Program-made: the position numbers and the translations under genes
Assembly (NCBI GenBank): GCA_964534185.1
Contig: CAZHOH010000002.1
Location: 10,558 to 74,557 of the forward strand
From: Candidatus Woesearchaeota archaeon
GTDB taxonomy: Archaea; Nanobdellota; Nanobdellia; Pacearchaeales; GW2011-AR1
DNA: 64,000 bases
Direction: 5' to 3'
Notes under the pieces: model-generated
The model's input: only the letters and a program-made list of their open reading frames with translations
What the model was told of the DNA's origin: nothing
Databases searched by the model: none
Shown: one piece after another, positions 41,131 to 64,000 of the stretch
Layout: each line of letters starts with the position of its first letter
Numbering within the stretch: the stretch's first letter is position 1

Positions 41131-43065
41131 CTAAAGCATCGCCTCGAACTCGTTCATTCCTATGATCTGTACGCCCAACTCGCGGGCCTTCTGAGCCTTG
41201 CTTTTCGTGCTGGACGTATCCTTGAGGACGAGGTAACTGAGTCCCTTGCTCACGCTCTTCTTTTCCTTGCCTCCCGCCGCTTCCAGACGTTGCCTCTGAT
41301 CAGGATCCATTCGTACCCCAGAGAAGCAGAAGGTCTTCCCGTACAACTTGCCGTCGGACACCTCCTTCTTGAGCGGGGTCACCTTGATTATCCTGACCAG
41401 CCTCTCTATTAGATCCTTGCGGGACTGGATCGACTCTGTAACCTCCTTGGCCGGCTCCTCGCCGAACGTTCCCTTCTCGCTGAATGGCTTTCCGACGAGA
41501 TCCTTGGGTGCGAGGCCAAGATATTCCTCGACGGTATCGATGCCGATAAGGCGAGCGCGAGACCTGCCGAGCATCTTGATGGACAGCGATCCCATGAACA
41601 TGTCGATCGGGAGTTCTCGCGTCTTGTCAATCTCTGACACGATCTTCTTGGCGTTGCTGCCGATGACCCCGTTGCCCACCGGGCACTTCGACACGCTGGC
41701 CTCGTCGAGCGAGTAAAGGTCATCTATGTCCTTGACCAGACTCGCCTCGACCAGGGACCTGAGCGCCGTGGAGCCAAGTTGCTTGATGTCTAGCTTGTCA
41801 ACCCAGTTCCTGATCCTCTGGAAGTAGAGGTCTGGGCAGGTGGGGTCGGTCACCAGCAGGCGCTTGCCCTCCCAGGACAGGTCGTATTCCTTGCCATCGG
41901 AGGCCTTCCATGCCCCCGGGGGAGGAAAGGGGCCGGCCGTGTTCTTCTTGGCCACCCTCGTTATGTGCGGGATGATGTCCCCTCCCTTCTCCACCTCGAC
42001 GACGTCTCCGACGTTGATGTTCTTCTCGCTGACGTACTTGAAGTTGTTCAGCAAGCAGTGCGTAACGGTCGTCCCCGCTAGCCTCACAGGCTCGAACACG
42101 GCGGTGGGTATGATCGCCCCCGTTTGGCCGATGGTAAGCTCTATCGAGAGGATCTTGGACTCGGCCTTCTCCGTCTCGAACTTCCAAGCCACCTGCCCCC
42201 GGGGGCGGCTCCCCCCGTCGCTGTACCCCATGGATTCCTGCTTCTCGAGGTCCTCGACCGCGACGACCATGCCGTCGATCTCGAACTCGAGTTCGACGCG
42301 GGAGTCCTCGTATCGCTTGCGGCACTTGACGAGGTCGTCCCAGGTCCGGCAACGGAACCACCGGATCGTCTCGAAGCCCATGGACTCGAGCGCCTTGAAC
42401 TTGTGGCTCTGCTTCTTGAACGCAACCTCGGGGTGAACCAGGTCGAACGCCCGGAACGTGATGTGCTTGTTCGCGCTGGGGTCGCTCTTCGCCACGATGA
42501 CGCCGTTGCCGCCGTTGCGGGGGTTTTCCTTGTCTGGGAGATGCTCCCTCCACGCGCTGACGGACAACTGGGCCTCACCCCGGACGATGACCTGAGCCTT
42601 GACGTCGATCTTCTCCGGCAACCCCTCCCACATGCGGGCGTTGCGGGTGATGTCCATGCCGATCTTGCCGTCGCCGCGGGTGGCAACGCGCCAGAGGCTG
42701 CCCCCGCGATAGACCGCCTCGGCGCTGGAGCCGTCAGCCTTGTCCGACACGATGACCTCGGGCTTGCCGGCCTTCTCGAACCATGCCAGGATGCCGGCCT
42801 CGTCCTTGGCCTTGTTCTGGCTTCCCATGTGCATCAGAAGCCTGACCTCGTCCCGATGCCCGGAGACAGGGGCGCCGACCTCGCTGAAGAACGAGTGCCC
42901 CGGGGCCGCGCGCCGGAGCTCGTCGCGAAGCGCGTCGAACTCCGCGTCGGTCATCAGGGTCATGCCCGTATTGTAATAGGCCTCGCTGGCCGCCCTCAAG
43001 TCGGCAGCGATCTCGTCAGGGGACCTCCTGTCGCCTGGCCCAAAGTTGATTGCTGGATCTTTCAT
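41131..43065 (-). CDS. ligA: NAD-dependent DNA ligase
   Basis: EAYYNTG...TDAEFDAL (Ia), SDKADGSS (KxDG), OB, Zn/HhH region, and C-terminal BRCT (GKTFCFSGV...LSYLVLKD). Start reset to ATG 43065. Confidence 0.92.
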   Translation of the reverse strand: MKDPAINFGPGDRRSPDEIAADLRAASEAYYNTGMTLMTDAEFDALRDELRRAAPGHSFFSEVGAPVSGHRDEVRLLMHMGSQNKAKDEAGILAWFEKAGKPEVIVSDKADGSSAEAVYRGGSLWRVATRGDGKIGMDITRNARMWEGLPEKIDVKAQVIVRGEAQLSVSAWREHLPDKENPRNGGNGVIVAKSDPSANKHITFRAFDLVHPEVAFKKQSHKFKALESMGFETIRWFRCRTWDDLVKCRKRYEDSRVELEFEIDGMVVAVEDLEKQESMGYSDGGSRPRGQVAWKFETEKAESKILSIELTIGQTGAIIPTAVFEPVRLAGTTVTHCLLNNFKYVSEKNINVGDVVEVEKGGDIIPHITRVAKKNTAGPFPPPGAWKASDGKEYDLSWEGKRLLVTDPTCPDLYFQRIRNWVDKLDIKQLGSTALRSLVEASLVKDIDDLYSLDEASVSKCPVGNGVIGSNAKKIVSEIDKTRELPIDMFMGSLSIKMLGRSRARLIGIDTVEEYLGLAPKDLVGKPFSEKGTFGEEPAKEVTESIQSRKDLIERLVRIIKVTPLKKEVSDGKLYGKTFCFSGVRMDPDQRQRLEAAGGKEKKSVSKGLSYLVLKDTSSTKSKAQKARELGVQIIGMNEFEAML

Positions 43066-43214
43066 GAAAAACTCTCCGAGGAGACCATCGCCTTCGGCGG
43101 CCAAACTCGTCGAGGACAAGGCCTCGACGATCGGTCCCCGGCGAAGCGCGAGCCGCCCCGGGGCCTAGCCCCGGGAATCCGCACCCTTCAGGGGGCGGAG
43201 GATGTCAAGTCTTG

Positions 43215-45873: not shown

Positions 45874-46473
45874 TCAACTCTTGCGGCGCTTTTTCTTTGG
45901 CCTTGGCCTTGGCATGCGCCTCGCTGGCCTCAAGTCCTCGCCTCTTAGCAATTTCAGGTGTTTCTCGATCATTCCTTTCTTGACGGGGCCGATTTTATCG
46001 ACGAACAACACCCCGTCCAGATGGTCGATCTCATGTTGTATCGCTTGAGACAATAGCCCCGTGGCGTTCATTCCCTGCTTGACGCCGGTCACGTCTTGGT
46101 ATTCCACGGACACCTTCGAAGCCCGCCGAACGTGTCCCGTCACCTTCTGCAGGGGGAGGCTCAGGCAGGCCTCTTGCATGCTCTGCTCGCCAGACGACTC
46201 CACCACGACGGGGTTCACCATCGCGAAAACGCTCATCTTCTCGCCATCGGGGACGCGAAGGACTATGATTCTCTTCGTCTCGCCAACCTGTGGCCCCGCG
46301 AGGCCAATGCCCCTCTCCAGCGACAGGGTATGAAGCATGTCGTGCGCGAGGAAGGCGACGGACTCGTCGAAGGACGTAACCTCCTTGGCCTCCCCCCGGA
46401 GGACGGGATCCGGATACGTGAGAATCTTCAGGGCGCTTGGCTGGCGCGAAGGCGCGGAAGAGGTATCGGCCAT
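45874..46473 (-). CDS. def: peptide deformylase with Lys/Arg-rich C-terminal tail
   Basis: GIGLAGPQVG, EACLSLP, QHEIDHLDG. Tail RPRPKKKRRKS. Confidence 0.92.
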   Translation of the reverse strand: MADTSSAPSRQPSALKILTYPDPVLRGEAKEVTSFDESVAFLAHDMLHTLSLERGIGLAGPQVGETKRIIVLRVPDGEKMSVFAMVNPVVVESSGEQSMQEACLSLPLQKVTGHVRRASKVSVEYQDVTGVKQGMNATGLLSQAIQHEIDHLDGVLFVDKIGPVKKGMIEKHLKLLRGEDLRPARRMPRPRPKKKRRKS

Positions 46474-46510
46474 GACTTCTCCGTTCTAGTCGAACATGTT
46501 AGGCGGCTCG

Positions 46511-48604
46511 TCACCACGTGGCGGCCAATCGAAAGGATAACACTCCGAAAGCGCACGCAGCAGCAACTGGGACGACGCCATTTCCCAGCAGGCGTAGCTG
46601 GTCTGTTCGACGCTCGTGGTCGAGTCTGTCCATCCCGGAGGCCACCCCATCAGCCATTCTACAAAGAGCGGGTTCAAGAAGCGGCTCGGCTTCAAGGACT
46701 TGCTCCCATTCCCTGAAGTCCCCTGGCCCCGGGGGCGCGAGGGGGAGGATTGTTCCAGATGGGCCTCGAAAACCTGCGACCACACCTTTGCCAGCGTCTC
46801 GACATGAACCTGATGGCTGCCGCTCTCCGACTGCCCCTTCCGAAGAACCTGCTCGACGCTCATAGCCCTGCCCCCGTTGGGCACGTTCGGCGTTGGCCAG
46901 AGACAGTTCCACACGTCGCTCCACATTTTCGCTACGACCTGGAGGCTCGTCGGAGTCTTCCGGGGGCCTCCCTTCATGCGCCGCTTCATCGCCATGTGGG
47001 CCCCAGGGGTCTTGTTGTCGTCGTTCGCCACCGCCGTTGGCCACAGCGGCCCATTCTGCCGCCCGGAGGATGGCCTCTTCTCCCGGTCTCGCGCCGGCGA
47101 TGAAGAGACGCTTTCGGACATGGCACAGTCCGACTTCCGCCGCCGAGAATAGTCCTGCTTCAACGTCGTAGCCCAGGCCTTGTAGGTCTCTGGCGACCTC
47201 GTCGAAGCCGACGTTAACGTGGTTGGGTACGTTCTCGAAAAAGAGGACGCGGGGTTCTGCCTCCTGGACGATCCTCCTGACGCTGGGCCAGAGGTGGCGG
47301 GGATCCTCCTTGCCCTTGATTCTCCCGGCACAGGAGAACGGCTGGCAGTTGTGGACGACAGTTCCGTCTGCCACGTAAGACTCATCGTCTCGGACTGCGA
47401 TGTTATAGACTGTGTCCTTGCCAACAGGGGCGTTTGAGCTGACGCGCTTCCATCCAAGACCTTGGTCGACGAAGGATGCACGATTGCGATCAGGGATGGA
47501 CACGATCCATGACGGCCTTTGTCTGACGAGTCTGCCTTCGATGACCTTATCTTTTGCGCTTTGGCAGCATCGAACGGCAGCAATGACCCCAAATGCTCGC
47601 TGAGAGAGCAGAGCGACACTGAGAGCAAGGGCCTTGCTCGCGGACTGAACTCGACGAAATCCCCCCTTTCCAACAGGGTTCTTATGTGCTCCTCCGTCTC
47701 CAGACAAGCATCCCTCAAGCAAGGCCCTGGCCTTTCCCTCTCCGAGGGAAAGGTACTTTCCGGGGATACGCTTGCCGCGGGCATGTCGTCCGAATTGCTG
47801 CAAGAACTTGAAGAAACATGTTCTTGTAATGGCGAATCTGGTTGTTGTTCGCTCCTCGCTCCTGTAGGCGCTAAGCCCTGCTTCTTGTATTCGCCTTTCA
47901 AGTTCGTCTGCCTCTGGTCTGTTGCAACAGATGTTGACACGACCATTTCTGTGGGAAGGAGATTTTTGGAGCCAACCGTCAGCCAAGTACCTCCCGACGA
48001 GCCACCAGAATTCTTTTGATCGTTTGTCTGGGCGCACTGGAGGGAGAGCCTGAGCCACCCAATGCGCTCCGGTGAGTTCCTTTGCCTGCACCCAATCAGG
48101 GGAACCAAAAGATCGCTGTCTTCCCTTTTGTTTGCACCTAGCGAAGAAGGGGTGCTCTTCTGTGCATCTGATTCCCGGGGTTCCTTGCGCCTTGATTTCC
48201 CTGATTGGGGCACCGTCCTTGCGCATGACCGCTGTGACTGGCTTCCATCTGGCTCGGTGGGTAAGGACCAGATCTCCAACTCGAACGTCTTCGATGGGGA
48301 CATATCCTCGCTTGCATAAGACGAGGGTTCCTGAGACGAAGCACGGGTACCCTCCAGTGACGCAATCCACGACGCCACGCCATCTTCTGCCGTCGAAGGT
48401 CTTGGCATCCGTCCAAATAGGCGCGTCGTCCAGCCGCCCTTCTTCCATGCGTGATGCCAGTACTTCGATGGCATATCCTTCCCTCTCCACGTAGCAGACG
48501 ACGCGAGAGCCTCCGACCGCCATTCGGAGTCCGAGCTCGAGTCCGCCGCCGCCGGAGCAGAGAGACAGAACGTTGAAGGTACGTATGCCCACATCTTTGT
48601 TCAT
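46511..48604 (-). CDS. DNA (cytosine-5)-methyltransferase interrupted by an intein
   Basis: LSLCSGGGGLELG (I), GGYP|C...HN|CQPFS (IV split), LFFENVPN (VI), RKRLFIAG (VIII), LLGNGVVP (X). See findings for the second open frame. Confidence 0.85.
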   Translation of the reverse strand: MNKDVGIRTFNVLSLCSGGGGLELGLRMAVGGSRVVCYVEREGYAIEVLASRMEEGRLDDAPIWTDAKTFDGRRWRGVVDCVTGGYPCFVSGTLVLCKRGYVPIEDVRVGDLVLTHRARWKPVTAVMRKDGAPIREIKAQGTPGIRCTEEHPFFARCKQKGRQRSFGSPDWVQAKELTGAHWVAQALPPVRPDKRSKEFWWLVGRYLADGWLQKSPSHRNGRVNICCNRPEADELERRIQEAGLSAYRSEERTTTRFAITRTCFFKFLQQFGRHARGKRIPGKYLSLGEGKARALLEGCLSGDGGAHKNPVGKGGFRRVQSASKALALSVALLSQRAFGVIAAVRCCQSAKDKVIEGRLVRQRPSWIVSIPDRNRASFVDQGLGWKRVSSNAPVGKDTVYNIAVRDDESYVADGTVVHNCQPFSCAGRIKGKEDPRHLWPSVRRIVQEAEPRVLFFENVPNHVNVGFDEVARDLQGLGYDVEAGLFSAAEVGLCHVRKRLFIAGARPGEEAILRAAEWAAVANGGGERRQQDPWGPHGDEAAHEGRPPEDSDEPPGRSENVERRVELSLANAERAQRGQGYERRAGSSEGAVGERQPSGSCRDAGKGVVAGFRGPSGTILPLAPPGPGDFREWEQVLEAEPLLEPALCRMADGVASGMDRLDHERRTDQLRLLGNGVVPVAAACAFGVLSFRLAATW
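47348..48343 (-). mobile_element. 332-aa class-1 intein with LAGLIDADG homing-endonuclease domain
   Basis: Starts CFVSGTLV (block A). Contains CTEEHPFF (block B TxxH), LVGRYLADGW and LLEGCLSGDGG (two LAGLIDADG motifs). Ends VADGTVVHN, followed by the +1 Cys of CQPFS. Confidence 0.85.
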
Positions 48605-53621: not shown

Positions 53622-53963
53622 CTACTTGCTCTTCCTGCCAAAGCCCCTGACCTGGGGAAGGCCCCCCACCCCCGGGAGACCGGGGATGCCGGGCTGCGGG
53701 GCAACCCTGCCCCGCAGCACCTTAGGGTCCGAGGACGGCTGCTCCTCACGGGGAGTCCTTGACGCTGCGGCGAGCTTGTCGATTTTCTCGCAGACCTTGC
53801 CCTTCATCGACTCGACGTCGACGCCCGTGTCCACGTCGCAGATCGCGGCGGGGACGAGGGTGACGGTGCGGTTCCGGGTCTCGAGCCGCACCGGCTGCTT
53901 GCCTTCCTGAAGCAGGCTCTCCTCCGGCACGGCGGCCATGAAAACGACGATCTTATAGGACAT
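53622..53963 (-). CDS. hypothetical protein (113 aa), Pro/Gly-rich tail
   Basis: Only the last 113 codons of ORF 53622..54599 are used. ATG 53963 follows GGAAGGAAG. Confidence 0.45.
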   Translation of the reverse strand: MSYKIVVFMAAVPEESLLQEGKQPVRLETRNRTVTLVPAAICDVDTGVDVESMKGKVCEKIDKLAAASRTPREEQPSSDPKVLRGRVAPQPGIPGLPGVGGLPQVRGFGRKSK

Positions 53964-53992
53964 GCCTGTCTTCCTTCCTGCGAGCAGTCTAC

Positions 53993-55354
53993 CTACTCGC
54001 GCTTGAAATCGAGGTTGATCTTGTAGTTCCACGTCTTGCCGTGCTCCGGGTGCACCCCGAAAACGGACTGGGTTGGCCGCGACGCCTTGCGGAGCTGGTG
54101 CATCGAGTAGATGTCTCCCCCCACGAAACTGCCGTTGACCATGATCTCGCCGCGCGTCGTCTGCAGGTCGCTGAAGGAGTGAAAGTGCCCGAGGCAAAGG
54201 TAGTCGAAGGGCTTTCGCGTCGCTCCCGACACCAGGTTCTGCAGGCTCAGCTCCTCCTTGTAGATGGAGTTGATGTTCTGGGAGATGTAGTCGCCGTGAA
54301 CAAGCAGGAACTCCCAGTCGTTGATGGTCTTCGTTTGCCACCATGCCTGTGAATAGTTGACGTTGATGTTCGGCCTGTTCTGCAGGAGGGCCTGCAGTAA
54401 CTTGTACGATATGAGGTCCCAGTTGGCCGACACCTTGTCGGAGCTCTTCGAGACCCCCGCGCGCCCATGGTTGCCAAGAACTCCGTCGAACTCGACCCGC
54501 TCGAAGTAGGCGCTCCAGGCGTCCAGCATCTCGGAGACCACCTGCGCGGCCATGATGGCCTGCTGAGTGATGTCTAGCGTCGTGTAGGCCGGCCCCCACT
54601 CCCCCGCGAGGTTGGCCCCCTGGACAAAGTCGCCCAGGCCCATAACGTGCAGCACGGGCACCTGCCTGACCTCGCTGTGCAGGGACAGTATCTCGAGCAC
54701 GGCGCTGCGAAGGTTGCTGGCCCTCTCCTTGAACACCTCGACGTCGTAGCCGCCGAGGCCACCCGTGTCCTGCGGGGAGAACTCCTGTCCCACGTGCAGG
54801 TCGGACAGCATGAGCACCATGTGCTCGTCGGAATGCTTCTTATTTTTCGCCCTGTTGAGCGTCAGCTTTGGCAGGGCCTGGCGGGGCAGCGGGGTGGCGC
54901 TCCGCTCGATCGCCTCCTGGAGTTCGCGCAGGAAGGCCTTGTTGCTGACTTCCTTTCTCCGCACCTTGACGACATTCTTCGCGGCCTCCCTGTCCCGGAC
55001 CGACTCGGCCTCCAGGTGCAGGACGTCGTCGTAGGTCATGTCGCACAACTCGGCCAGCACCTCGGCGAACCTATCCCAGTCGACGCTATTGACCTTCCTC
55101 GTGATCGTGGAGCGCTCGTAGCCGAGGGCGTCGGCCATCGCGGCATGGGACAGCTTGGAATTACTGGACACCAGCTCGTATAGGGCGACCATCTTTGGGG
55201 CGTCCCACGCGGCTGTCACGCCGGGCAGGCACGAGAACCGCAGCGGATCCTCCCCGTGCTTCTCCATGAACGCACTGACGGCGTCCACCCTCCGAGTTGA
55301 CTTTCTCTTCGCCAGCCTCTTCCGAATGGCGTCGGCACGATCCTTCCTGTTCAT
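53993..55354 (-). CDS. calcineurin-like metallophosphoesterase with N-terminal HTH-like region
   Basis: LSDLHVG, GLGDFVQG, GNHG, VHGD, GHFH. Start reset to ATG 55354 (TAATG overlap). Confidence 0.8.
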   Translation of the reverse strand: MNRKDRADAIRKRLAKRKSTRRVDAVSAFMEKHGEDPLRFSCLPGVTAAWDAPKMVALYELVSSNSKLSHAAMADALGYERSTITRKVNSVDWDRFAEVLAELCDMTYDDVLHLEAESVRDREAAKNVVKVRRKEVSNKAFLRELQEAIERSATPLPRQALPKLTLNRAKNKKHSDEHMVLMLSDLHVGQEFSPQDTGGLGGYDVEVFKERASNLRSAVLEILSLHSEVRQVPVLHVMGLGDFVQGANLAGEWGPAYTTLDITQQAIMAAQVVSEMLDAWSAYFERVEFDGVLGNHGRAGVSKSSDKVSANWDLISYKLLQALLQNRPNINVNYSQAWWQTKTINDWEFLLVHGDYISQNINSIYKEELSLQNLVSGATRKPFDYLCLGHFHSFSDLQTTRGEIMVNGSFVGGDIYSMHQLRKASRPTQSVFGVHPEHGKTWNYKINLDFKRE

Positions 55355-56526
55355 TAAGATCTCCCTGGCAGGACTGATACGGGTAAAACGTCGCTCGCCC
55401 GGAACCATAAGTCTCGCCGAGCCTCGTCAAGGGGCAGGCTCTCGTCCAAGCCTCCCACTTTTTCCAGCACTGTTCTCCTCGCGACGAAACTATCGGGCGC
55501 GCCAGCGGCGAATATGTGGCCGGGGCCCTCCAGTGCCTTTAGTTGGGCCGCCAGCCGACGCGGTTCCTGCCTGTCGGCCAGCCAGACGTACTTGGTACGG
55601 GTCATCAAGAGGCCCAGGTTGAAGGCTCCCGTGTTGGATGCCCCCGGGGGTGGGACTACGGCCCTGACTCCCTCTGGCGCCGGCCCGTCGGATACGAGTG
55701 TGACCTCGAAGTCATGAAGGCCGCTTCCGCTCAGTTCCCTTGTGACCTTGGACAAGTCGTTCATACTGCCTATTATTACGATTCCCAATGTTGGGACCCG
55801 AAATTTGTCCACGTATTGGGAGGACAAGGAAAATTCCCCGGCCTCCCCCATCTTCCTGAGGCGCGCCTCCACGACGTCCCTTAGCATGCAGGCCATGGAG
55901 TACGAGAACGGGCTGCCGCTTCCGCGCGAGGGCCCGCCTCCCCTATGGATGACGTTTGTCACGGCGTCGGCTTTGCCCGGCGCTCCGCACGCGATGTACA
56001 TGCGCCCCCAGAAGTCCCAGTCCTCCATTTTTTGCAGGCTTTCGTCCCATCCCCCTACGAGCTCGAACGCCTTTCTCGTGTGGATGAACGATGAGACGGG
56101 CGCGATGTTCTGCGACAGGAGCGCGTCGGGGTCGTAATAGCGCTTCGGCCCGGGGTTGTTTGGCTCGGGGTCGGTGGTCTCGAAGCCGTCGGCATAGCGG
56201 AACAACGCCCGGGAGAAGGAGAACTCGTGGCTCCCTATGGCGCGGAGTTGTTCTCCCACGTAGTTCGGCAGCAGCTCGTCGTCGTCGTCGAGATAGCAGA
56301 TGTAGTCCGCGGAAGACATCTTGACGCCGAAGTTGCGGGCGTAGGCAGGGCCCCTTCCCCCGGGGGTGGACAGGAGCCTGGTTCCAGGAACAGGATTCGG
56401 GGCACGGGGACCGTCGTTGACGACAATAATATCCATCACCTTGACTGTTTGGTTCAATGCGGATTTGACAGCACGCCCAAGCAAATCCGGCCTGCTGTAT
56501 GTCGGGATTATAATGGCTATATTCAT
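55354..56526 (-). CDS. family-2 glycosyltransferase (tandem GT-A halves)
   Basis: IIIPTYSRPDLLGRAVKSALNQT and YLDDDDELLP. Start reset to ATG 56526. Confidence 0.85.
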   Translation of the reverse strand: MNIAIIIPTYSRPDLLGRAVKSALNQTVKVMDIIVVNDGPRAPNPVPGTRLLSTPGGRGPAYARNFGVKMSSADYICYLDDDDELLPNYVGEQLRAIGSHEFSFSRALFRYADGFETTDPEPNNPGPKRYYDPDALLSQNIAPVSSFIHTRKAFELVGGWDESLQKMEDWDFWGRMYIACGAPGKADAVTNVIHRGGGPSRGSGSPFSYSMACMLRDVVEARLRKMGEAGEFSLSSQYVDKFRVPTLGIVIIGSMNDLSKVTRELSGSGLHDFEVTLVSDGPAPEGVRAVVPPPGASNTGAFNLGLLMTRTKYVWLADRQEPRRLAAQLKALEGPGHIFAAGAPDSFVARRTVLEKVGGLDESLPLDEARRDLWFRASDVLPVSVLPGRS

Positions 56527-57113: not shown

Positions 57114-58186
57114 TAGAAACCCAATACTTTGTTGGATACGACCTGGCTAACGTTATCGACCGCGTATTCCGGGGGTATCAACCACTTGGAATCATTGTCC
57201 CTTATAATACGAACGCAGCGCATGATGTCCTCTGGTAGGACACCGGATAAAATGTTACTGCCACACTCGATGGTTTCCGGGCGCTCTGTGGAATCGCGAA
57301 TCGTAATATTGGGGATGCCCATGATGCAGCACTCTTCCTGAACGGTACCGCTGTCAGTTAGAACGAAGCAAGCCTGCTGCTCGAGTTTTACGAAGTCAAA
57401 TAGCCCGAACGGCTGCAAGAAGTGTATTTTGTTGTCTACGAGGTCCTTGTCCATCTCCTCCAAGCGATTTCTAGTTCGGGGATGAACACTGCATACGACA
57501 GGGAGTTCGTAATCCCTTCGGATGCTTCCAAGGGAGTCCAGCAGATGTCTCAATCGAAGTTTGTCGTCGACATTCTCCTGACGGTGCATAGTAACCAAGC
57601 AATAGGATTCATAAAGTCCTAGGTCATCAAGAATGCGTGACTCTGAGATTTTGTTTGCGTAGTATCGAAGTACCTCGGCGATGGGATTTCCCGTTACGAA
57701 TATCCGATTACCTTCTATACCTTCGCGCAGGAGGTTACTTCTGCTTCTTTCTGTATAAGGCATCAGCACATCGCTCGAATGGTCTATGATACGTCTGTTT
57801 ACTTCTTCGGGCACGCGGTCATCGAAGCACCTATTGCCAGCTTCCATGTGGTAGACCGGGATGCCGAGCCTCTTGGCAACAATAGCCGACAATGCGCTGT
57901 TGGTATCCCCCAGCAAGAGGACGCGATCGGGGAGCTCCTCCTCCATTACCTCTTCGGACAAGGCAAGGATGCGGCCAATTTGTGCACCGAAAGTAGACTC
58001 TCGTATTCCAAGGAGACGATCCGGAGTACGAACCCCCAGCTCATCAAAAAATACGTCATTCAGTTTGGCGTCATAGTTCTGACCCGTATGAACTAGGACA
58101 TGATCACACAACGCGTCTAACTTGGGGATTATCCGGCTCAACCTGATTATCTCAGGCCTGGTTCCGAGTAGTGTTAGAACCTTCAT
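57113..58186 (-). CDS. wecB: UDP-N-acetylglucosamine 2-epimerase (non-hydrolysing)
   Basis: LLGTRPEIIRL, HTGQNYD, GDTNSAL, HMEAGNR, VTGNP, TDSGTVQEE. Confidence 0.9.
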   Translation of the reverse strand: MKVLTLLGTRPEIIRLSRIIPKLDALCDHVLVHTGQNYDAKLNDVFFDELGVRTPDRLLGIRESTFGAQIGRILALSEEVMEEELPDRVLLLGDTNSALSAIVAKRLGIPVYHMEAGNRCFDDRVPEEVNRRIIDHSSDVLMPYTERSRSNLLREGIEGNRIFVTGNPIAEVLRYYANKISESRILDDLGLYESYCLVTMHRQENVDDKLRLRHLLDSLGSIRRDYELPVVCSVHPRTRNRLEEMDKDLVDNKIHFLQPFGLFDFVKLEQQACFVLTDSGTVQEECCIMGIPNITIRDSTERPETIECGSNILSGVLPEDIMRCVRIIRDNDSKWLIPPEYAVDNVSQVVSNKVLGF

Positions 58187-59097
58187 CGGTTTCCTCCGTA
58201 AATCTTCCCCCTAGTTTTGATGCCAGGAAAATCTACCCATTCATCCCCAAAATGCGCATAATCTTTTTCCGTCGTAATTCGAATCTCATGAACACACCCT
58301 GATTTCTTCAACTTTATGAATGATAACTTCTTATAACTCTTGCGATCCAAAACCCAGATGCCACCATCAGAATGATTCCTCGCAGCACGGCTCCCATCCC
58401 ATACTGACTGGCCCATGAGAATGAGATCTCGCGAAATAGCCAACCCACGAGTAAGGACTCTTTTCTCGGCTTGACAAAGAATTTCCCCTGACGAAGCCTC
58501 AATCAATTGTCCCCTGTTGGTAGCGCATACTAGGGTCTGGCCTTGCACGCGGCATACATTATGCGCCCACAAAGAAGCCTCCATCGAGATGTATTTCTCA
58601 ATGACTTTTGTAGTTAAATCTACTATGAATATCTTGGAAGGGCGCTCCCAATTATGCGCACATACGTACAGTTTACCCCCCTTGACATAGACAGAGTTGA
58701 AATGGTTTCCGGTACCTTTTGGGCCTAGTCGATCCCATTTCTTATCATTGATCCAGAAGTTCTCATATTCTAGAGTTTGCGTATCAAGGATACCTATGGC
58801 ATTCCGCCCCGTATTAGTACATATTACTTTGCCATTATTGCAAACAATCTGGTGGGGCTGAGAAAGAAACGCGGCGGACGTTCTTCGAGCTACGGATACT
58901 GTTCCCTTTATTGAGTTTCTATATGATTCTTCCGTTCCGAGAGAAGCATTGTCTATGTTGCTATGCGAGAAGCACAGCCCCTCTCTTGTCCAAGAAATGC
59001 CATAGTATTCAGTACGACCGCTCTCGACTACTTCGTAGCGTCCCGTCTCAATATCAACCCAGAGGATATTCTTCGGACATGCAACCAATACTTCCAC
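58183..59097 (-). CDS. hypothetical beta-propeller-like protein
   Basis: 304-aa beta-rich ORF inside the sugar cluster. Confidence 0.55.
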   Translation of the reverse strand: MEVLVACPKNILWVDIETGRYEVVESGRTEYYGISWTREGLCFSHSNIDNASLGTEESYRNSIKGTVSVARRTSAAFLSQPHQIVCNNGKVICTNTGRNAIGILDTQTLEYENFWINDKKWDRLGPKGTGNHFNSVYVKGGKLYVCAHNWERPSKIFIVDLTTKVIEKYISMEASLWAHNVCRVQGQTLVCATNRGQLIEASSGEILCQAEKRVLTRGLAISRDLILMGQSVWDGSRAARNHSDGGIWVLDRKSYKKLSFIKLKKSGCVHEIRITTEKDYAHFGDEWVDFPGIKTRGKIYGGNR

Positions 59098-59106
59098 TTT
59101 CTTCTC

Positions 59107-59796
59107 CTATGACAACGTCTTGATGTAGGCCTCAGCGAACCTTCTGCCCAGCATCCCCATCCCTTGGAAAGTATGGTGAAGTGCGTCATCCTTGAGAGGA
59201 ATGTCATCCGTATTCAAACAGATTACTCTGTCCAGAACAGACGCTGCCTTATCTTGAGCGTCCCTTACATTGGGCCGAAACGGGAATCTCCCAACAGGAG
59301 GATTAACGCGACCCAAGAACAATGGTACGTCTGAGATATCCTTCCTCAACCGGGATACCAAGAGACGAAAGTTGTCCAAGTAAGTCATGGCTGCTGGCTT
59401 ATACTTGCAGTCTCTTTCTCCTTGCATCCAGAAAATGGCTCGTACACCATCCCCCTTCCGGTAAATACGACCAAACTCGCTGACGAGTTTTTGGTACATC
59501 GGGCCATCGGAAACGTTTTGGGTAATCGCAGCTCTTTTCTCGGTCCACTCGGGTGCCCATGCCAAGAGAGAAGTACCGTTCGCGGCGCACTTGAGTATCT
59601 TGACAGGTTCCTTTACCCGTTTTCGTATGTGTGACGCAAATTCATACTCAGGGCCCGCAAAAGGAAGTTCACAAAAACCTTTTTTTTTGCCGTCCCAGTA
59701 AACTTCGACGCCATCTATTGAGTTGGACACCGTCCGGCTAGAAGAGCACGTACCTACCATGTTGGACTGTCCGGCAAGAATAAAAATATGAGCCAT
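59107..59796 (-). CDS. carbohydrate esterase, sialate O-acetylesterase-like (GQSNM motif)
   Basis: IFILAGQSNMVG at the N-terminus. Confidence 0.7.
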   Translation of the reverse strand: MAHIFILAGQSNMVGTCSSSRTVSNSIDGVEVYWDGKKKGFCELPFAGPEYEFASHIRKRVKEPVKILKCAANGTSLLAWAPEWTEKRAAITQNVSDGPMYQKLVSEFGRIYRKGDGVRAIFWMQGERDCKYKPAAMTYLDNFRLLVSRLRKDISDVPLFLGRVNPPVGRFPFRPNVRDAQDKAASVLDRVICLNTDDIPLKDDALHHTFQGMGMLGRRFAEAYIKTLS

Positions 59797-59799
59797 CGA

Positions 59800-60651
59800 C
59801 TATCTCCTGTTTGTCATGATATTGGAAGGAAGTTCATCTGTAGGCACAAAACCTAAATCAGCGAGTTCCTTGGTTTCTTTCGTCGCGACGGCAAACCAAA
59901 ATGGCTCTTTTAGCCATGGTCTAGGCTCGCCTTCTGCAATGCCAATCTCATAGCCCGCCTCCTGGAGCGCCCTCAGGCCTTTCATGCGATACTCGAACAT
60001 GCAATGGGACGATGACTTCATCGCCAAACAGAATATAGCCCCTTTGGCTATGACCATACTAGCACCCTGAATCGCATCCGTCTCCGCTCCATTGATCGTC
60101 AAGTTGACAAAATCAAATTCATATTTCTTGTACAAAGCATCAAGCGTTGTTGTCTCTACAGAAATTTTCGTACCGATTGCAAACTGGTCAACGAGGCTGC
60201 TACCGTTTCTAAGATTCTCGGTAACATTGAAGATTTTCTCTCCAATGTTGCTCCATACAGCCGCTTCTACGACTTCCATGTTTTCTATCGAGTAGTCACG
60301 AATGTACTTCCTGACTACAACTACGTTTACGGGGTCTGGCTCTACTACAACTACATGACCAGTATGGCCAACAACCGCAGAAAATGCCATCGGCTGCGAC
60401 ATGCCTGCCTTGATTAAGCCCATCCAGGCCCCGCAACATACGACAGTATTACCTGGCACTACAAACTGATAGGGATGGAGCCGGGACAACCAGGAAGTAG
60501 ATGATAGATAGTCCGCCCTATAGGATCCCGGCTCGCCACTCGACCTTAGTATTCTGGCCCTATTTTGAGGAGAAGGAGGAGGTCTCCCTCCCTCCCACAT
60601 CTTCAAGTACGATCGCTGTACCCTTGTTTTTCTCTGAACATGGAATCCCAT
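59800..60651 (-). CDS. FkbM-like methyltransferase
   Basis: GNTVVCCGAWMG ... NLTINGAE pattern. Start uncertain. Confidence 0.55.
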   Translation of the reverse strand: MGFHVQRKTRVQRSYLKMWEGGRPPPSPQNRARILRSSGEPGSYRADYLSSTSWLSRLHPYQFVVPGNTVVCCGAWMGLIKAGMSQPMAFSAVVGHTGHVVVVEPDPVNVVVVRKYIRDYSIENMEVVEAAVWSNIGEKIFNVTENLRNGSSLVDQFAIGTKISVETTTLDALYKKYEFDFVNLTINGAETDAIQGASMVIAKGAIFCLAMKSSSHCMFEYRMKGLRALQEAGYEIGIAEGEPRPWLKEPFWFAVATKETKELADLGFVPTDELPSNIMTNRR

Positions 60652-61401
60652 CTATAGAGTTCCTTTATAGCGACCAAGCCACTCGAACTGTTGAATATAC
60701 CCATTTATTGTTTCCAGCATCCCGGGTTCCCACTTATTGTCATACCGGGTACAATTAGGTTTATTGAATACTACGGCAGTACACTTTTTTACATAGTCAT
60801 CATGGGTTTCAAGCCCGAGGTACTGCAGTATGTTCTGGATCTCTCTCTCCGGGGCAACAATTAAGTCCTCCAAATAGACGTCCAAAACGTCGTACTCAGA
60901 CTTGATACTACTTACCGTTTGGCTCGCCATCCGAAAAAGGTCACGCGCTGATGCTGCGCCAATCAATTTGGACCATGTTGCCAACGTATCGTATGGATTT
61001 CTGATTACATGTATCAACCGCAGGTCAAAACCCGTTTTTCGGGAGAACCGCCCCAAGAAGCCAGGATGCGCGTTGATGAATTCTGTAGAACTGAATCCCC
61101 TCTTGTCCCCTAGGAGAACCGGATTAGGCGATACTATACCTTGATATAGGCCAGGTATCTGGTAACTGTAACCCAAAACGGGTTTACCCTCTGCTGATAT
61201 CTTTTGGCCCTTCTTTCCAGCCCTCGCATGTGTTACAGAGTTTTCCTTTATGGCCCGTACCATTTCATCCCTACCCACGGTCGAATAAAGAGAAATCGCA
61301 TTGAGTTCATGGGATACTACGGCATCCTTGTGGGCGTCTATAATTGCCCCAACAAGGCTATGGCCCGTACGGGGGTTACCTATAAAGATCAGGAACTTCA
61401 T
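60652..61401 (-). CDS. sulfotransferase-family protein
   Basis: FIGNPRTGHSLVG (PAPS-binding loop-like). Confidence 0.7.
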   Translation of the reverse strand: MKFLIFIGNPRTGHSLVGAIIDAHKDAVVSHELNAISLYSTVGRDEMVRAIKENSVTHARAGKKGQKISAEGKPVLGYSYQIPGLYQGIVSPNPVLLGDKRGFSSTEFINAHPGFLGRFSRKTGFDLRLIHVIRNPYDTLATWSKLIGAASARDLFRMASQTVSSIKSEYDVLDVYLEDLIVAPEREIQNILQYLGLETHDDYVKKCTAVVFNKPNCTRYDNKWEPGMLETINGYIQQFEWLGRYKGTL

Positions 61402-61402
61402 A

Positions 61403-62503
61403 TTATGCTCCTTTCAACGTCTTGACGTAGCTGCGTATCTTATCACATATGAACCAAATATCTTTCGTTGGCAATTCGGGGTAGCTGGGGAACATAACAA
61501 CCTCGCGAGATAGCAGGTGAGCAATCGATTCATCCGACGGTGCCAAATGCCTTAGGTACGGATGTTTGGATATGGGGACGAACATGGGCCTCGTATCAAT
61601 GGAAAACTGAGTGAAATAGTCTTTGGCTCTTTCGTAAGACGGGTTGCCGACGAATTTGGCAGCGAATATCCAGTTGGCATGAGAGGTTCCCGGTTCAACC
61701 TCTTGCACCTGAATACCCTCCTCTGAATCAAGCCCCTCCTTATAGGCGTCGAATACCCTCGCCTTCTCTTCCTTTATCTGGTTCATGCTTTCCAGTTGCC
61801 CTAATAGAATCGCCGCTTGAACGTTCGTCATCCTGTAATTGGATCCCAAAATCTCATGGTGGTATAACTTGCTACCTTGGCCCTGTCCTCGAACCTTGCG
61901 AGCAAAATCAGCGACATCCTTGTCATTGGTAATAAAAGCCCCACCCTCGCCACTTGTTATGCTCTTGTTAGCGAAAAAACTCATGGCAGAACAAAAAGAG
62001 GCGCTCCCGGCCGGATAACCTTCGTAGTTGCCAAAAAACGCTTCACAGGCGTCCTCAACAAAAACCAGTTTTGGAAAGTTCTTCTTTAGCCTTGGAACGT
62101 TCATGACATTCCCGACGTTATGCACGATTAGTATGGCATCGGCGTCTGCATCGGGCGGTAGATCGGCGTTCCATGTCCTCGGGTCTACGCCCATGACGCA
62201 CATGTCATAGTGTTCGCGAACAAAGGAATTCCATGCCGCAACAAAGACGCTATTCGGAACAAGAATTCTTTTGGCTCCCTTAAAATGGCGCAAGCAACGG
62301 GCTACAAGATTCATAGCCATCGTTCCACTGGAAGTCAAAAGGACATACTCTGCCCCCAAAATCTCAGACAGTTTCTTTTCGACGACAGGCGCATACTTGC
62401 CTCGCCACGAAATCCACCCCGATTGGATGGCCTCCGTAGCGTACTGGCGGCTCAGGGCCGGGACAAAGGGCCTATATACTGGAAACACGATGATTCCAAT
62501 CAA
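61403..62503 (-). CDS. DegT/DnrJ/EryC1/StrS-family sugar aminotransferase
   Basis: LLTSSGTMAMNL, HNVGNV, SFFANKSITSGEGGAF (PLP lysine). Confidence 0.88.
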   Translation of the reverse strand: MIGIIVFPVYRPFVPALSRQYATEAIQSGWISWRGKYAPVVEKKLSEILGAEYVLLTSSGTMAMNLVARCLRHFKGAKRILVPNSVFVAAWNSFVREHYDMCVMGVDPRTWNADLPPDADADAILIVHNVGNVMNVPRLKKNFPKLVFVEDACEAFFGNYEGYPAGSASFCSAMSFFANKSITSGEGGAFITNDKDVADFARKVRGQGQGSKLYHHEILGSNYRMTNVQAAILLGQLESMNQIKEEKARVFDAYKEGLDSEEGIQVQEVEPGTSHANWIFAAKFVGNPSYERAKDYFTQFSIDTRPMFVPISKHPYLRHLAPSDESIAHLLSREVVMFPSYPELPTKDIWFICDKIRSYVKTLKGA

Positions 62504-62808
62504 TAGGTCTTGTGTTTACGCTGTATATTTCTTCCATCATCAAGTTGCTCCCCCCGGGAACTGGCCTCAAGCAGTTGTACAAGATTTTCGTCTATCTCAT
62601 CCATTAGTTGGTTGCGCTGAACATTGAGATCGCATGCCTTCTTCAGACATGCCCAAAGCCTTTGTGCCCCATCTTCCGTATTCCAGTACTTGTCCTTGAA
62701 TTCCTTGAAAGACATCCGCCGGATCTCGTAGAGGAGTTCCTGGTTATCCCACATCTTGAGGTCAACGGTAATCAACTTATCTATCAATCCACCAAACGTA
62801 TCTGCCAT
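62500..62808 (-). CDS. small helical protein (102 aa), possibly DUF4254-like
   Basis: ORF coupled to the aminotransferase (ATGA-type overlap). Family call is tentative. Confidence 0.5.
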   Translation of the reverse strand: MADTFGGLIDKLITVDLKMWDNQELLYEIRRMSFKEFKDKYWNTEDGAQRLWACLKKACDLNVQRNQLMDEIDENLVQLLEASSRGEQLDDGRNIQRKHKTY

Positions 62809-62811
62809 ACC

Positions 62812-63951
62812 TTAGCTCCTTATATAGAAGCAGATATTGTCTTTCTGCTTCATTCTCTCAAAACCAAGACTTTCGTATAACCTACACGCTCTCATGTTGT
62901 CTGCGTCTACACTTAAATGTATAGTACGAATACCTTTGGCTCGCGCATGCCTCAAAAGAGCCAGCATCATGGCGCGACCATACCCCCTTCCCTGTGCGCT
63001 TGGAATAATACATATACCCAACCAGGTTTTTCCGTCCTCCGGGTCTAAGTGCCCATAGGCAACGGGAGCATCGCCCTCGCGACACAGAAGCGTTACTTCA
63101 TGACTGCGGATAATTGATGCTGGTCTCTTGTTAAAATATCTGAACGTTGACAGAGAATCCCCTGCAATGTCGAGGAATTTATGTACTTCGGGTTCTGTAG
63201 CTGACGTTATCTTGGTGGCAAATTTGACATCTTGCTTGAAGTCTTGCATGGTACAGGAATGTGCCAAACGATGGCCAAACATTCTAGGCAGCAACGAGTC
63301 AAAAACTGTATTCTTGAACCACGGTTCAGATACGATACACGTCATCCTGCCTACTGCTGCTCCCAGTATTAGTCCGCCCCCTACCCCTATGCTTATGGAA
63401 TATAGTGCGCGGCTCATGATGTATGTATCCTTCATGAGTTTTTCCAAATTCGGAGCCGTCACCCCAAGACGCGGAACGGTCAGGTCAACAACATTACTGA
63501 GTCCCTTCAAATAATCATATGCGGAACTAAAATATTCTCTGTACCTCAAATATTCTTGGTTTAGCTCAACGTCACGCTCTCCAAGCAAAACTACCTTGCA
63601 TCCTTGTTTATCCAACAAGGGTACAAGTTCTTTACATATTTGCCGGACGGTATCCTTGTGTATTTCCCGAACTTTCGTATTGATGCAGATATAGTCCCCT
63701 TCCGGTATCTTGGTCTTCTTAGTTAACCTGTCTACAAAATCTATTGGTACTACCCTCTTTCTTGGCCCGTATTGATGCCAGTTCATCGCAGGGCCATCTT
63801 GTGCCCTTACGCTACAGTCAAAACAATCCTCTCGATAGATAAGAGGCATAAACCCTTCCAAAAACTTGCTGTATTCCGAACCCCTGAAAGCCAAATATGC
63901 TACGTGGGGGAATACCAATATCTCTTCCTCGCTTGCCGCCATGGCGCGCAA
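62812..63951 (-). CDS. two-domain protein with C-terminal GNAT acetyltransferase
   Basis: C-terminal QGRGYGRAMMLALLRHA...LSVDADNMRACRLYESLGF (GNAT motif A). Confidence 0.75.
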   Translation of the reverse strand: MRAMAASEEEILVFPHVAYLAFRGSEYSKFLEGFMPLIYREDCFDCSVRAQDGPAMNWHQYGPRKRVVPIDFVDRLTKKTKIPEGDYICINTKVREIHKDTVRQICKELVPLLDKQGCKVVLLGERDVELNQEYLRYREYFSSAYDYLKGLSNVVDLTVPRLGVTAPNLEKLMKDTYIMSRALYSISIGVGGGLILGAAVGRMTCIVSEPWFKNTVFDSLLPRMFGHRLAHSCTMQDFKQDVKFATKITSATEPEVHKFLDIAGDSLSTFRYFNKRPASIIRSHEVTLLCREGDAPVAYGHLDPEDGKTWLGICIIPSAQGRGYGRAMMLALLRHARAKGIRTIHLSVDADNMRACRLYESLGFERMKQKDNICFYIRS

Positions 63952-64000
63952 AATGCTCCATTGACAAATCAGGTCACCGATCCCGACTCGTAGTCCGAAT

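Follow-up and report, generated by a model that had tools for sequence, protein, structure and literature searches.

Two co-extensive reading frames of one strand as the probable genes of a two-chain C5-methyltransferase

How can two open reading frames of about 700 codons each share almost all their bases on a single strand, when one of them carries the motifs of a DNA cytosine methyltransferase (MTase)? The question is raised by a phage locus in a 64,000-nucleotide stretch of a Candidatus Woesearchaeota archaeon assembly (GCA_964534185.1), below called the window. The initial annotation reported the two frames and offered four readings (two compensating indels due to sequencing error or pseudogenisation, a programmed +1/-1 frameshift pair, genuine dual coding, or coincidence), choosing none. 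Both frames are present exactly as described, on the same strand, which had been left unstated and is the minus strand (Table 1). We denote the frame-0 product alpha and the +1-frame product beta. Of the four readings the evidence favours dual coding: probably, these are two fully overlapping genes with twin start codons that jointly encode one two-chain C5-methyltransferase.

Table 1. Features of the alpha/beta locus (positions in the window)
Feature	Position	Strand	Description
Alpha ORF	46511..48604	minus	frame 0, 697 aa; 365 aa once the intein is spliced out
Beta ORF	46486..48594	minus	+1 frame relative to alpha, 702 aa; co-extensive with alpha
Twin start region	48577..48604	minus	alpha ATG 48604-48602; beta ATG 48594-48592; alternative alpha GTG 48592-48590 ('ATGTGG')
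Alpha N-extein, aa 1-87	48344..48604	minus	motif I LSLCSGGGGLELG through GGYP of motif IV
Beta-conserved island PSTAEDGVASWIASL	48355..48399	minus	inside the alpha catalytic domain, upstream of the intein
Class-1 intein with putative LAGLIDADG homing-endonuclease domain, 332 aa	47348..48343	minus	immediately before the motif IV catalytic Cys (GGYP|C...VVHN|CQPFS)
Alpha C-extein, catalytic part	47084..47347	minus	CQPFS (motif IV Cys), ENV (motif VI), HVRKRLFIAG (motif VIII)
Beta WPT/WPTP-repeat region LWPTAVANDDNK..., LWPTPNVPNGGR...	46678..47046	minus	proposed target-recognition part
Alpha-specific conserved segment PPGPGDFREWEQVLEAEPLLEPA	46667..46735	minus	frame 0; family consensus FPPGPxDxxxWxxxLxxxPxLEPA
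Proposed beta motif IX LNPLFVEWLMGWPPGWTD	46624..46677	minus	frame 0 over the same bases reads LEPALCRMADGVASGMDRL
Alpha motif X and C-terminal helix RTDQLRLLGNGVVPVAAACAFGVL	46514..46609	minus	frame-0 selection, modelled helices, Shauna1 gp67 alignment

The openness of the two frames is real and far beyond chance. When the synonymous codons of alpha were shuffled (2000 shuffles), the +1 frame contained 10.1 stops on average; one is observed, and no shuffle reached one or fewer. This sole stop is a TGA overlapping the alpha ATG, upstream of the beta ATG, and beta itself has no internal stops against about ten expected from the shuffles. The other 46 long ORFs of the window have 702 stops in their +1 frames, compared with 722 expected, and each has at least five. 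The alpha/beta locus is the unique outlier in +1 openness among the 47 window genes, and both the shuffles and this window-wide control rule out coincidence.

In C5-methyltransferases the large domain is formed by motifs I-VIII together with X, the small domain by the variable region and motif IX (PMC3404938). Alpha is the large domain of such an enzyme: motifs I-VIII are followed by a low-complexity linker, the FPPGPxD..W segment and motif X. Motifs I, IV, VI, VIII and X, already read in this frame by the initial annotation, were all found, with a PF00145 match at E 7e-25; the hallmarks are LSLCSGGGGLELG, GGYP, the intein, CQPFS, FFENV and HVRKRLF. With the intein removed, alpha scores 108 bits over HMM positions 1-166 of 324, and phmmer matches it to HaeIII/HhaI at E of about 3e-12 to 5e-12. 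Motif X (RTDQLRLLGNGVVP) is in the same chain as motifs I-VIII and in the frame-0 selection phase. A target-recognition region and motif IX were not found between VIII and X in the alpha chain (the Pfam alignment ends at 166/324); the motif IX-like segment sits in the +1 frame.

Frame 0 had been described as low-complexity over the disputed bases. This is true of the linker (GERRQQ..., LANAE...), which occupies the same bases as the beta WPTP region, and not of the 3' part PPGPGDFREWEQVLEAEPLLEPA: the C-terminal half of alpha is matched in a single frame in 112/120 homologues, and in the family consensus of that segment P, P and W are invariant. In the AF2 model of the alpha homologue P0003 the FPPGPxD segment is a helix (pLDDT ~73), the large domain and the motif X helices are confident, and the linker is disordered; about 175 of its 325 residues superpose on HaeIII/HhaI, matching roughly half of HhaI/HaeIII.

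The second frame reads LWPTAV...LWPTPNVPNGG...LNPLFVEWLMGWPPGWTD at 46624..47046, as had been stated, and the suggestion that it resembles the part of phage Dcm enzymes that comprises target recognition and motif IX is borne out by three lines of evidence. The beta WPTP region matches +1 frames of phage MTase genes (tblastn, E 3e-9). PF00145 aligns end-to-end (to position 313 of 324) only on a composite of the N-terminal part of alpha, the target-recognition region (TRD) and motif IX of beta, and motif X of alpha. Finally, this composite is colinear with the single-chain gp67 of Mycobacterium phage Shauna1 (E 1e-14), which has motifs I-VIII, L/WPTP repeats, FPEWMMGWPAGW (motif IX) and GNGV.P (motif X) in the same order, although all blocks of gp67 are in one frame and its +1 frame has many stops. 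The Shauna1-type single-chain arrangement is the canonical one, and the alpha/beta pair appears to split it between frames. When the composite was compared with PDB sequences, only the N-terminal domain aligned.

We considered whether the phage tblastn matches could be ordinary single-frame WPTP/LNP proteins. This was rejected: out of three phage "homologues" checked, only Shauna1 gp67 is in frame, the other two (phi1026b and Yong-M2-251) being unannotated +1 frames of annotated MTase genes. According to the initial annotation, if the second frame were spurious, homologues would run end-to-end in the 697-aa frame and the alternative frame would go unmatched; the former is indeed observed, the latter is not, as strong matches to the alternative frame exist.

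On its own, beta matches no Pfam family, and its matches to PDB sequences are at the chance level, the best being the MS2 coat protein (E 0.02). The AF2 model of its C-terminal part has confident local helices and no confident global fold (pLDDT 64.7, pTM 0.29). The proposed assignment of beta motif IX rests on the pattern, the colinearity and an 8-bit gain in the Pfam score, and the WPTP region would be the target-recognition part. Beta-type proteins are common: at E<=1e-3 beta matches 44,923 cluster representatives, and there are 603 matches to full-length beta-type proteins, with no Pfam domain and called "hypothetical protein" where named at all. Long beta homologues yielded no Pfam fusion domains.

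The two-frame layout is found at about 150 independent loci, complete genomes included. Of 77 viral loci, 75 are free of +1 stops from motif VIII to motif X, where the +2 frame has 4-16, and among relatives from bacterial genomes 73 of 75 have no stop in the +1 frame throughout the tested span. The +1 stop rate is 0.04-0.06 per 100 codons versus 1.97 in neighbouring genes, that is, such stops are about 30-50 times rarer. In a replication on GTDB genomes, +1 stops were seen in 0/11,476 and 2/15,771 codons. The AT-rich relative L185 has the open layout as well, with a beta of 525 codons.

Judged by the variability of codon positions, selection alternates between the frames segment by segment. 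Within the N-terminal domain, FPPGP and motif X, variation peaks at the third position of frame 0; within the WPTP region and motif IX it peaks at that of the +1 frame. In motif IX the pairwise identity is 72.5% for beta and 50.6% for alpha (null 24.5%, z = 41), and the frame-0 entropy is 0.41 at the third position versus 0.85 at the first. In the WPTP region, where WPTP blocks are seen in the family +1-frame alignment, the +1 identity is 0.232, compared with 0.131 in the null obtained by shuffling (z = 25). The signal persists in distant pairs (<60% identity), with the +2 frame as a control.

At the 5' end the beta N-terminus, W-[LI]-Y-[LVI]-P, is conserved at the protein level. Here it reads MWAYVP. 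In each of the 19 non-redundant relatives the pattern M/V-(x)-W-[LI]-Y-[LVI]-P lies no more than a few nucleotides from the alpha start, as 'ATGNATG' or 'RTGTGG'. In 49 unique sequences the W, Y and P of beta are invariant, proline being encoded by all four codons, and a start codon precedes the W by 1-2 codons in every one of the 49. In the Diva and L084 subfamilies the beta start is internal, and therefore a 5' beta start is not universal.

Another conserved part of beta is the island PSTAEDGVASWIASL, where S67, A69 and G72 are invariant and W76, S79 and L80 nearly so. Over this island alpha reads TFDG with fixed synonymous codons (GGC in 12/13 versus a usage of 0.37; TTC in 12/13). Other such islands of alpha also coincide with conserved beta residues, e.g. 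GCG in 20/20, although this codon table covers only 20 unique loci selected by a strict anchor pattern and is indicative only. The beta stretch outside WPTP and motif IX, about 170 residues in the family and about 500 here with the intein shadow, is barely conserved beyond the demands of alpha: in the ~170-residue stretch the excess identity is 0.08-0.12, compared with 0.05-0.07 in the +2 control. Such a leader is an odd burden and a point against the two-chain reading, as are the internal beta starts, the single-frame fusions of a few database relatives described below, the beta model without a confident global fold, the lack of Pfam and PDB matches to beta and the slender basis of its motif IX.

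The gene has about 700 codons, rather than about 365, because of an intein. As predicted from sequence, its anatomy is canonical and of class 1: Cys1 (CFVSGT...), block B CTEEHPFF, terminal VVHN and the +1 Cys. Hint_2 scores 34.7 bits (cut-off 28.4), whereas Intein_splicing (26.1, cut-off 35.8) and LAGLIDADG_3 (19.5, cut-off 22.5) remain below their thresholds; the candidate LAGLIDADG motifs WWLVGRYLADGW and LLEGCLSGDGG are visible. The initial annotation did not mention the intein. Beta reads straight through it: there are no +1 stops versus 5.6 expected (P = 0.001, shuffles). A natural control is provided by L084 and L085, which carry homologous inteins at this very site. These MTases have no co-extensive beta, and their inteins contain normal numbers of +1 stops, 24 and 8 versus 23.7 and 9.4 expected. 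The metagenome scan yielded no intein-bearing close relative.

The two-chain reading that we consider probable would operate as follows. Alpha, translated in frame 0, would provide the large catalytic domain with its disordered linker, having first spliced out the intein ahead of the catalytic Cys. Translation of beta would start 10 nt after the alpha ATG, at a codon overlapping the in-frame alpha GTG, which is the twin-start arrangement of the family. The bases of the alpha catalytic domain would be read by beta as a largely unconstrained leader, and ribosomes would have to cross the intein in its +1 frame, cleared of stops, before reaching the 3' part that would encode the small domain, that is, the WPTP target-recognition region and motif IX. 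The two chains may then associate and rebuild the complete enzyme, by analogy with M.EcoHK31I, where this was shown experimentally. Translation of beta, its association with alpha, the need for both chains and the part played by the WPTP region in target recognition are what we infer; purifying selection on both frames is the indirect evidence that both chains are made and required.

A beta-containing product might be made differently. Alpha could be the main protein, with a rare isoform that fuses the N-terminal part of alpha to the C-terminal part of beta, lacks motif X and arises either when ribosomes slip into +1 close to motif VIII or through phase-variable indels. Single-frame fusions do occur in 5 of 120 database relatives (P0009, P0053, P0093, P0097, P0104) and in L077; an (AC)n tract, read as THTHTHTH, is present in L077 and P0097, and P0053 changes frame within motif VIII, where it seems to differ by 1 nt. 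However, there is no repeat tract at the window junction or in the 19 non-redundant members, (AC)n being confined to the L077/P0097 lineage, and the rare fusions could be assembly errors, as such an indel is seen in L177 when compared with its sister L178. Given also that the fusion misses motif X, and that neither the absence of +1 stops upstream of motif VIII nor the conserved beta start is explained, we consider this isoform unlikely.

Quite unlikely is a single composite chain produced by two programmed frameshifts, the first (+1) following motif VIII and the second (-1) following motif IX, which would restore the canonical order I-VIII/TRD/IX/X. The composite is what Pfam aligns end-to-end, its colinearity with Shauna1 gp67 extends across the beta-to-alpha junction, and the IX-X spacing of the window composite is canonical (15 residues). 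On the other hand, in none of the 19 non-redundant members do the junctions have an in-phase slippery heptamer X_XXY_YYZ, a homopolymer or a repeat, and frame 0 offers no stop at which ribosomes would pause. In most members GWT of beta is only about 5-6 codons ahead of GNGVVP of alpha, a gap too short for a spliced chain. Moreover, a frameshift pair would explain neither why the +1 frame is open across the N-terminal domain and the intein, nor the conserved beta start, nor the frame-0 selection on FPPGPxD within the would-be +1 segment.

The +1 frame may also be an untranslated relic of an ancestral frameshifted single-chain gene, with alpha alone being the enzyme. Alpha-type proteins are the usual choice of annotation pipelines, alpha has all the catalytic motifs and motif X, and Shauna1 gp67 demonstrates that frames shifted during the evolution of the superfamily. 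In a relic, however, stops should accumulate and the protein signal should fade. Instead, stops are depleted to the extent given above, variation is synonymous for the +1 frame, and beta exceeds alpha in motif IX conservation, even at <60% identity; besides, alpha lacks the small domain and its linker is predicted to be disordered. We consider the relic very unlikely.

Finally, compensating indels, left by sequencing error or by a recent pseudogenisation, or coincidence in GC-rich DNA might be suggested by an uncultured assembly whose exact alpha protein is on no other record (exact-protein look-up) and which has no close phage relative (megablast of 20 kb against phages), but the probability is negligible, as homologues follow the 697-aa frame from end to end, the layout recurs in viral and genomic relatives including finished isolate genomes, the shuffles yield P < 1/2000, no other window gene has the effect, and AT-rich relatives share it. 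In particular, a composite running in frame 1, frame 2 and again frame 1 was rejected as a real gene: most homologues keep frame 1 to the end, and therefore the simple compensating-indel idea is out.

Returning to the two-chain reading, the only described precedent found in the literature is M.EcoHK31I of E. coli HK31 (Lee, Kam & Shaw 1995), in which a different frame within the alpha gene encodes beta, both chains being needed for methylation (PMC2836561, PMC3404938). According to its published description, from which the likeness is drawn, the split is the same: alpha has motifs I-VIII and X without IX, and beta has motif IX. Its beta, however, lies inside alpha and is reported to carry motif IX only, the predicted TRD being assigned to alpha, whereas beta here is co-extensive with alpha, has a twin start and carries the WPTP region as well as motif IX, and the variable region of alpha is a disordered shadow. 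M.EcoHK31I is also described as a single enzyme of a restriction-modification system, whereas the present layout characterises a very large phage and prophage family; no endonuclease adjacent to the MTase gene was found in the window. M.AquI (Karreman & de Waard 1990) is an alpha/beta C5-methyltransferase split in the variable region, its beta carrying motifs IX and X (PMC3404938). Being a natural two-subunit enzyme, it shows that the fold tolerates separate chains, but no co-extensive dual coding is mentioned for it (PMC3404938), and here motif X is in alpha and the genes overlap fully. Literature searches found no family-wide description of two-frame MTases, and neither a recoding review nor a 2025 review of restriction-modification systems mentions the layout.

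A relative of the pair has been annotated independently in Paenibacillus larvae phage Diva (NC_028788), which favours dual coding. Here gp50, labelled "g49 internal gene", occupies the +1 frame of the MTase gp49 and has W(G/A/P)TP repeats and LNPDWVECLMGFPIGWTD; hence it is a beta homologue. Unlike beta in the window, gp50 starts internally, near codon 61 of alpha; +1 stops lie upstream of this start, and the end of gp50 is just ahead of motif X. Internal genes of the Diva type are labelled only as hypothetical protein or methyltransferase, and the Paenibacillus larvae phage genome papers that we examined do not discuss the internal gene.

In classic cases of overprinting, such as A/B/K/E of phiX174 and Rz/Rz1 of lambda, the overlaps span tens to about 150 codons, and one partner usually has originated de novo. 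In the present family the frames overlap over the entire gene (about 350-400 codons; 697 for the window gene), and their products resemble the two domains of a single ancestral enzyme. If this is right, we know of no conserved same-strand overlap of genes in prokaryotic viruses that is longer. What the family shares with the classic cases is that a single DNA stretch yields two proteins by way of different frames, with constraint alternating along the overlap; long same-strand overlapping genes of phages and other viruses are among the subjects of a review (PMC8227390).

The broader proposition is that a very large phage and prophage family (tens of thousands of clusters at 50% identity) may consist of obligate two-subunit enzymes with co-extensive frames and twin starts, and that an intein was forced into a stop-free alternative frame; for this our belief and our doubt are evenly balanced. 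If it is true, thousands of annotated phage "DNA cytosine methyltransferases" are half-enzymes, and the missing halves are equally many "hypothetical proteins", the label in the database being set by the frame that the gene caller picked. Standard gene callers, which forbid long same-strand overlaps, would systematically miss this class of genes, and annotation, REBASE-style prediction of specificity and heterologous expression would all need both frames. The twin start codons would suggest a simple way of fixing the subunit stoichiometry from one ribosome-binding site. The stop-free intein shadow would be the adaptation of a mobile element after landing in dual-coding DNA, and direct evidence that ribosomes pass in the "wrong" frame through about 1 kb of intein on their way to the functional part of beta. 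The family would then be a natural, deeply sampled model of sequence sharing, in which, along 350-700 codons, islands conserved in one frame fall where the other is relaxed.

The initial annotation reported two almost co-extensive open frames, alpha and beta, and both were recovered with the same limits, on the minus strand (see the table). A beta codon consists of positions 2 and 3 of an alpha codon and position 1 of the next one, and at 46624..47046 beta translates as LWPTAV...LWPTPNVPNGG...LNPLFVEWLMGWPPGWTD. Alpha contains a single +1-frame stop, compared to a mean of 10.1 in 2000 synonymous-codon shuffles. It is a TGA that overlaps the ATG of alpha and precedes the start of beta. Elsewhere in the window, the 46 remaining long ORFs carry 702 stops in their +1 frames, with 722 expected, and at least five each. 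Hence the double openness is not due to chance, and coincidence, one of the readings proposed at the outset, is ruled out.

Coordinates of the alpha/beta pair and of other features of the window
Feature	Position	Strand	Description
alpha	46511..48604	-	frame 0, 697 aa; PF00145 match
beta	46486..48594	-	+1 frame, 702 aa
intein	47348..48343	-	332 aa; within alpha, directly before the motif IV catalytic Cys: GGYP/CFVSGT...VVHN/CQPFS
peptide deformylase	45874..46473	-	PF01327, E 1e-43; directly downstream of beta
NAD-dependent DNA ligase	41131..43164	-	
exonuclease-like gene	53993..55426	-	
ORF	53622..54599	-	325 aa; overlaps the 3' part of the exonuclease-like gene on the same strand
low-GC region	58000..64000		GC content about 0.47

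The exonuclease-like gene has 7 stops in the +1 frame, compared to 14.5 expected from shuffles (P 0.003), and 4 in the +2 frame, compared to 9.7; this deficit could be a chance event among 47 genes. The ligase gene has 7 stops in the +2 frame, with 16.8 expected, and none of 300 synonymous shuffles had as few.

The first search for homologues used as a query the composite that passes from alpha's frame to beta's and back. Most homologues end with FPPGPxDxxxW...LEPA..R.ADG...R.D.LR.LGNGVVP, aligned to the window in alpha's frame. The C-terminal half of alpha is matched by 112 of 120 homologues, and only five have a beta-like tail; thus alpha is an intact member of its family, and an indel artefact is rejected, as most homologues follow alpha's frame to the C-terminal end. 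Homologues do align end to end with the 697-aa frame, and yet beta's frame matches phage methyltransferase loci at E 3e-9. The suggested resemblance to a phage methyltransferase segment is therefore real, but the matching segment of Burkholderia phage phi1026b and that of Synechococcus phage Yong-M2-251 are shifted by +1 relative to the annotated methyltransferase CDS. The only phage match with this segment in frame is gp67 of Mycobacterium phage Shauna1.

In phi1026b (L082, 667..2787), the beta frame of the methyltransferase gp68 has no stop at the gene end and stays open into the next gene downstream, the ParB-like gp69, with which it is in frame, forming a 706-aa ORF; some related records label the gp68/gp69 region as one "chromosome partitioning protein".

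The open +1 frame is a property of the family. Eighty viral loci were gathered with the alpha profile, 77 of them analysable between motifs VIII and X. In this region the +1 frame is stop-free in 75 of the 77 and carries one to five WPTP-like motifs, whereas the +2 frame has 4–16 stops; the +1 ORF is usually co-extensive with the methyltransferase gene. The density of +1 stops per 100 codons is 0.04 in the N-terminal part of the methyltransferase and 0.06 in the C-terminal part, compared to 1.97 in genes nearby on these contigs. This was replicated on 75 loci from independent bacterial genomes, some of them complete and most from Alphaproteobacteria: the +1 frame has no stop in 11,476 codons of the N-terminal part and two in 15,771 of the C-terminal part, with 116 and 635 stops, respectively, in the +2 frame over the same codons. 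The LNP motif is present in the +1 frame in 74 of the 75. AT-rich distant relatives retain the open frame as well, with a beta of 525 codons in one of them (L185). In databases, beta-type ORFs yielded 603 word-index matches, none with a Pfam domain, called "hypothetical protein" where named, and in a 50%-identity library beta matched 44,923, 31,063 and 7,137 cluster representatives at E ≤ 1e-3, 1e-10 and 1e-30.

The start of beta is conserved too. All non-redundant loci have a +1 frame that opens with M/V-(x)-W-[LI]-Y-[LVI]-P a few nucleotides from alpha's start, the starts being arranged as ATGNATG or RTGTGG (in the window, ATGTGG at 48594). Among 49 unique sequences the W, Y and P are invariant, and the W is always preceded, at a distance of one or two codons, by a start codon. 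All four Pro codons and both Tyr codons are in use, and the residues that these bases encode in frame 0 differ between sequences, which indicates protein-level selection on the N-terminus of beta. This conservation and the absence of stops over the N-terminal region point to translation of beta from its 5' end. The ATG of the peptide deformylase gene lies 13 nt after the beta stop codon.

Selection was analysed in 19 non-redundant members (<75% identity). Of the three codon positions of alpha, the third varies most over the N-terminal domain, over motif X and over the segment with FPPGPxD. In the region encoding the beta segments WPTP, the proposed target-recognition part, and LNPxFVEWLMGWPxGWT, motif IX, the third position of alpha varies least and its first, which is the third of beta, varies most (0.41 vs 0.85 bits at motif IX). 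Pairwise identity over motif IX is 72.5% in beta and 50.6% in alpha, while synonymous shuffles give an expectation of 24.5% for beta (z = 41); with only distant pairs and the +2 frame as a control, the excess is still 0.47. Over alpha's catalytic domain the excess identity of beta is small, 0.08–0.12 vs 0.05–0.07 in the +2 control. A limited codon survey of 20 unique loci found fixed synonymous codons in this domain, Ala GCG in AAEVG (20/20) and Gly GGC in TFDG (12/13), and these islands correspond to the conserved beta residues R.K and PSxA.

Alpha owes its length of about 700 codons to an intein, which has Cys1, a TEEH block B, the terminal HN, Cys+1 and two LAGLIDADG-like motifs; in Pfam, Hint_2 is above the threshold, and Intein_splicing and LAGLIDADG_3 are below theirs. 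Homologous inteins (45–49% identity) are inserted at the same position of two further viral C5-methyltransferases (L084, L085). Their +1 stops number 24 and 8, close to 23.7 and 9.4 given by shuffles, whereas the window intein has none, with 5.6 expected (P = 0.001). In L084 the beta-like frame lies downstream of the intein and has an internal start. Thus the alternative frame of the intein is cleared only where beta starts 5' of it. We found no report of an intein in a C5-methyltransferase in the literature searched.

Pfam aligns alpha alone to model positions 1–166 of 324, and the composite of the alpha N-terminal part, the beta WPTP and LNP segments and alpha motif X (GNGVVP) to 1–313, the score rising from 108.3 to 116.4 bits. 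Shauna1 gp67, a natural single-chain enzyme, is colinear with the composite across the beta-to-alpha junction (E 1e-14; FPEWMMGWPAGWVTEVPGISRNDALRICGNGVCP vs FVEWLMGWPPGWTDLDHERRTDQLRLLGNGVVP). For a compact homologue of alpha (P0003), the AlphaFold model is confident for the large domain and the motif X helices, and it can be superposed on M.HaeIII and M.HhaI for about 175 of some 325 residues. Its linker is disordered (pLDDT 31–46) exactly where the WPTP region of beta is encoded, and confidence is low over the motif IX shadow. The model of the beta C-terminal part is moderately confident (pLDDT 64.7, pTM 0.29), with FVEWLMGW among the confident helices. As C5-methyltransferases are described (PMC3404938), motifs I–VIII and X make up the large domain, and the variable region and motif IX the small one; by this division, alpha would correspond to the large domain and beta to the small domain of one C5-methyltransferase.

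In Shauna1 gp67 (L083, 670..2037), the first ~70 codons after motif VIII resemble an alpha-type shadow linker, with SSLPTPRA...LMPTPRATDGTKGG in the +1 frame. This suggests that the superfamily has undergone repeated frame shifts during its evolution.

Fusions of the alpha N-terminal domain, in one frame, to the beta C-terminal part are rare in databases and may be real variants or assembly errors. They are seen in a locus (L077, ~2501..3483) and a protein (P0097) whose lineage has an (AC)n tract (THTHTHTH), a possible site of slipped-strand frame switching that is absent from the window. Two sister contigs illustrate this: in one (L177), an apparent single-base indel swaps the frames mid-gene, producing three partial ORFs, while the other (L178) has the regular layout. 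L177 itself may be such an error or a real variant. A double programmed frameshift producing a single composite chain is unsupported by sites, as a conserved slippery site or repeat was found in 0 of 19 members; moreover, it would leave only 5–6 residues or so between motifs IX and X in most members, and does not account for the family-wide openness, the selection mosaic or the conserved start of beta. A relic +1 frame cannot be reconciled with the depletion of stops or with the synonymous-type variation in that frame.

The neighbours of alpha/beta form a phage DNA-metabolism module (peptide deformylase, NAD-dependent ligase, AAA ATPase, nucleotidyltransferases, exonuclease), with no restriction endonuclease adjacent to the pair. 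A close phage genome is not known. GC content is 0.53–0.64 elsewhere in the window, and its drop in the low-GC region suggests that a module of another origin or the edge of the element lies there.

In Paenibacillus larvae phage Diva (L186), a beta homologue, gp50 (1625..2329), is annotated in GenBank as "g49 internal gene" in the +1 frame of the methyltransferase gene gp49 (1441..2493); it has an internal start and ends just before motif X. The same type of pair occurs in dozens of P. larvae phage records; the genome papers that could be consulted do not discuss gp50. Within an incomplete coverage of the literature, no description turned up of the arrangement across the family, of its co-extensive form or of the twin starts. 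The closest known precedent is M.EcoHK31I, described as requiring alpha and beta chains, with beta encoded inside the alpha gene in a different reading frame (PMC2836561). Genuine dual coding, with two co-extensive genes for two domains of one C5-methyltransferase, is the probable explanation; beta would be translated, the alpha and beta subunits would associate, and both would be needed. On this best-supported reading, the alpha/beta pair would extend the principle of M.EcoHK31I, with the intein in alpha as a complication.
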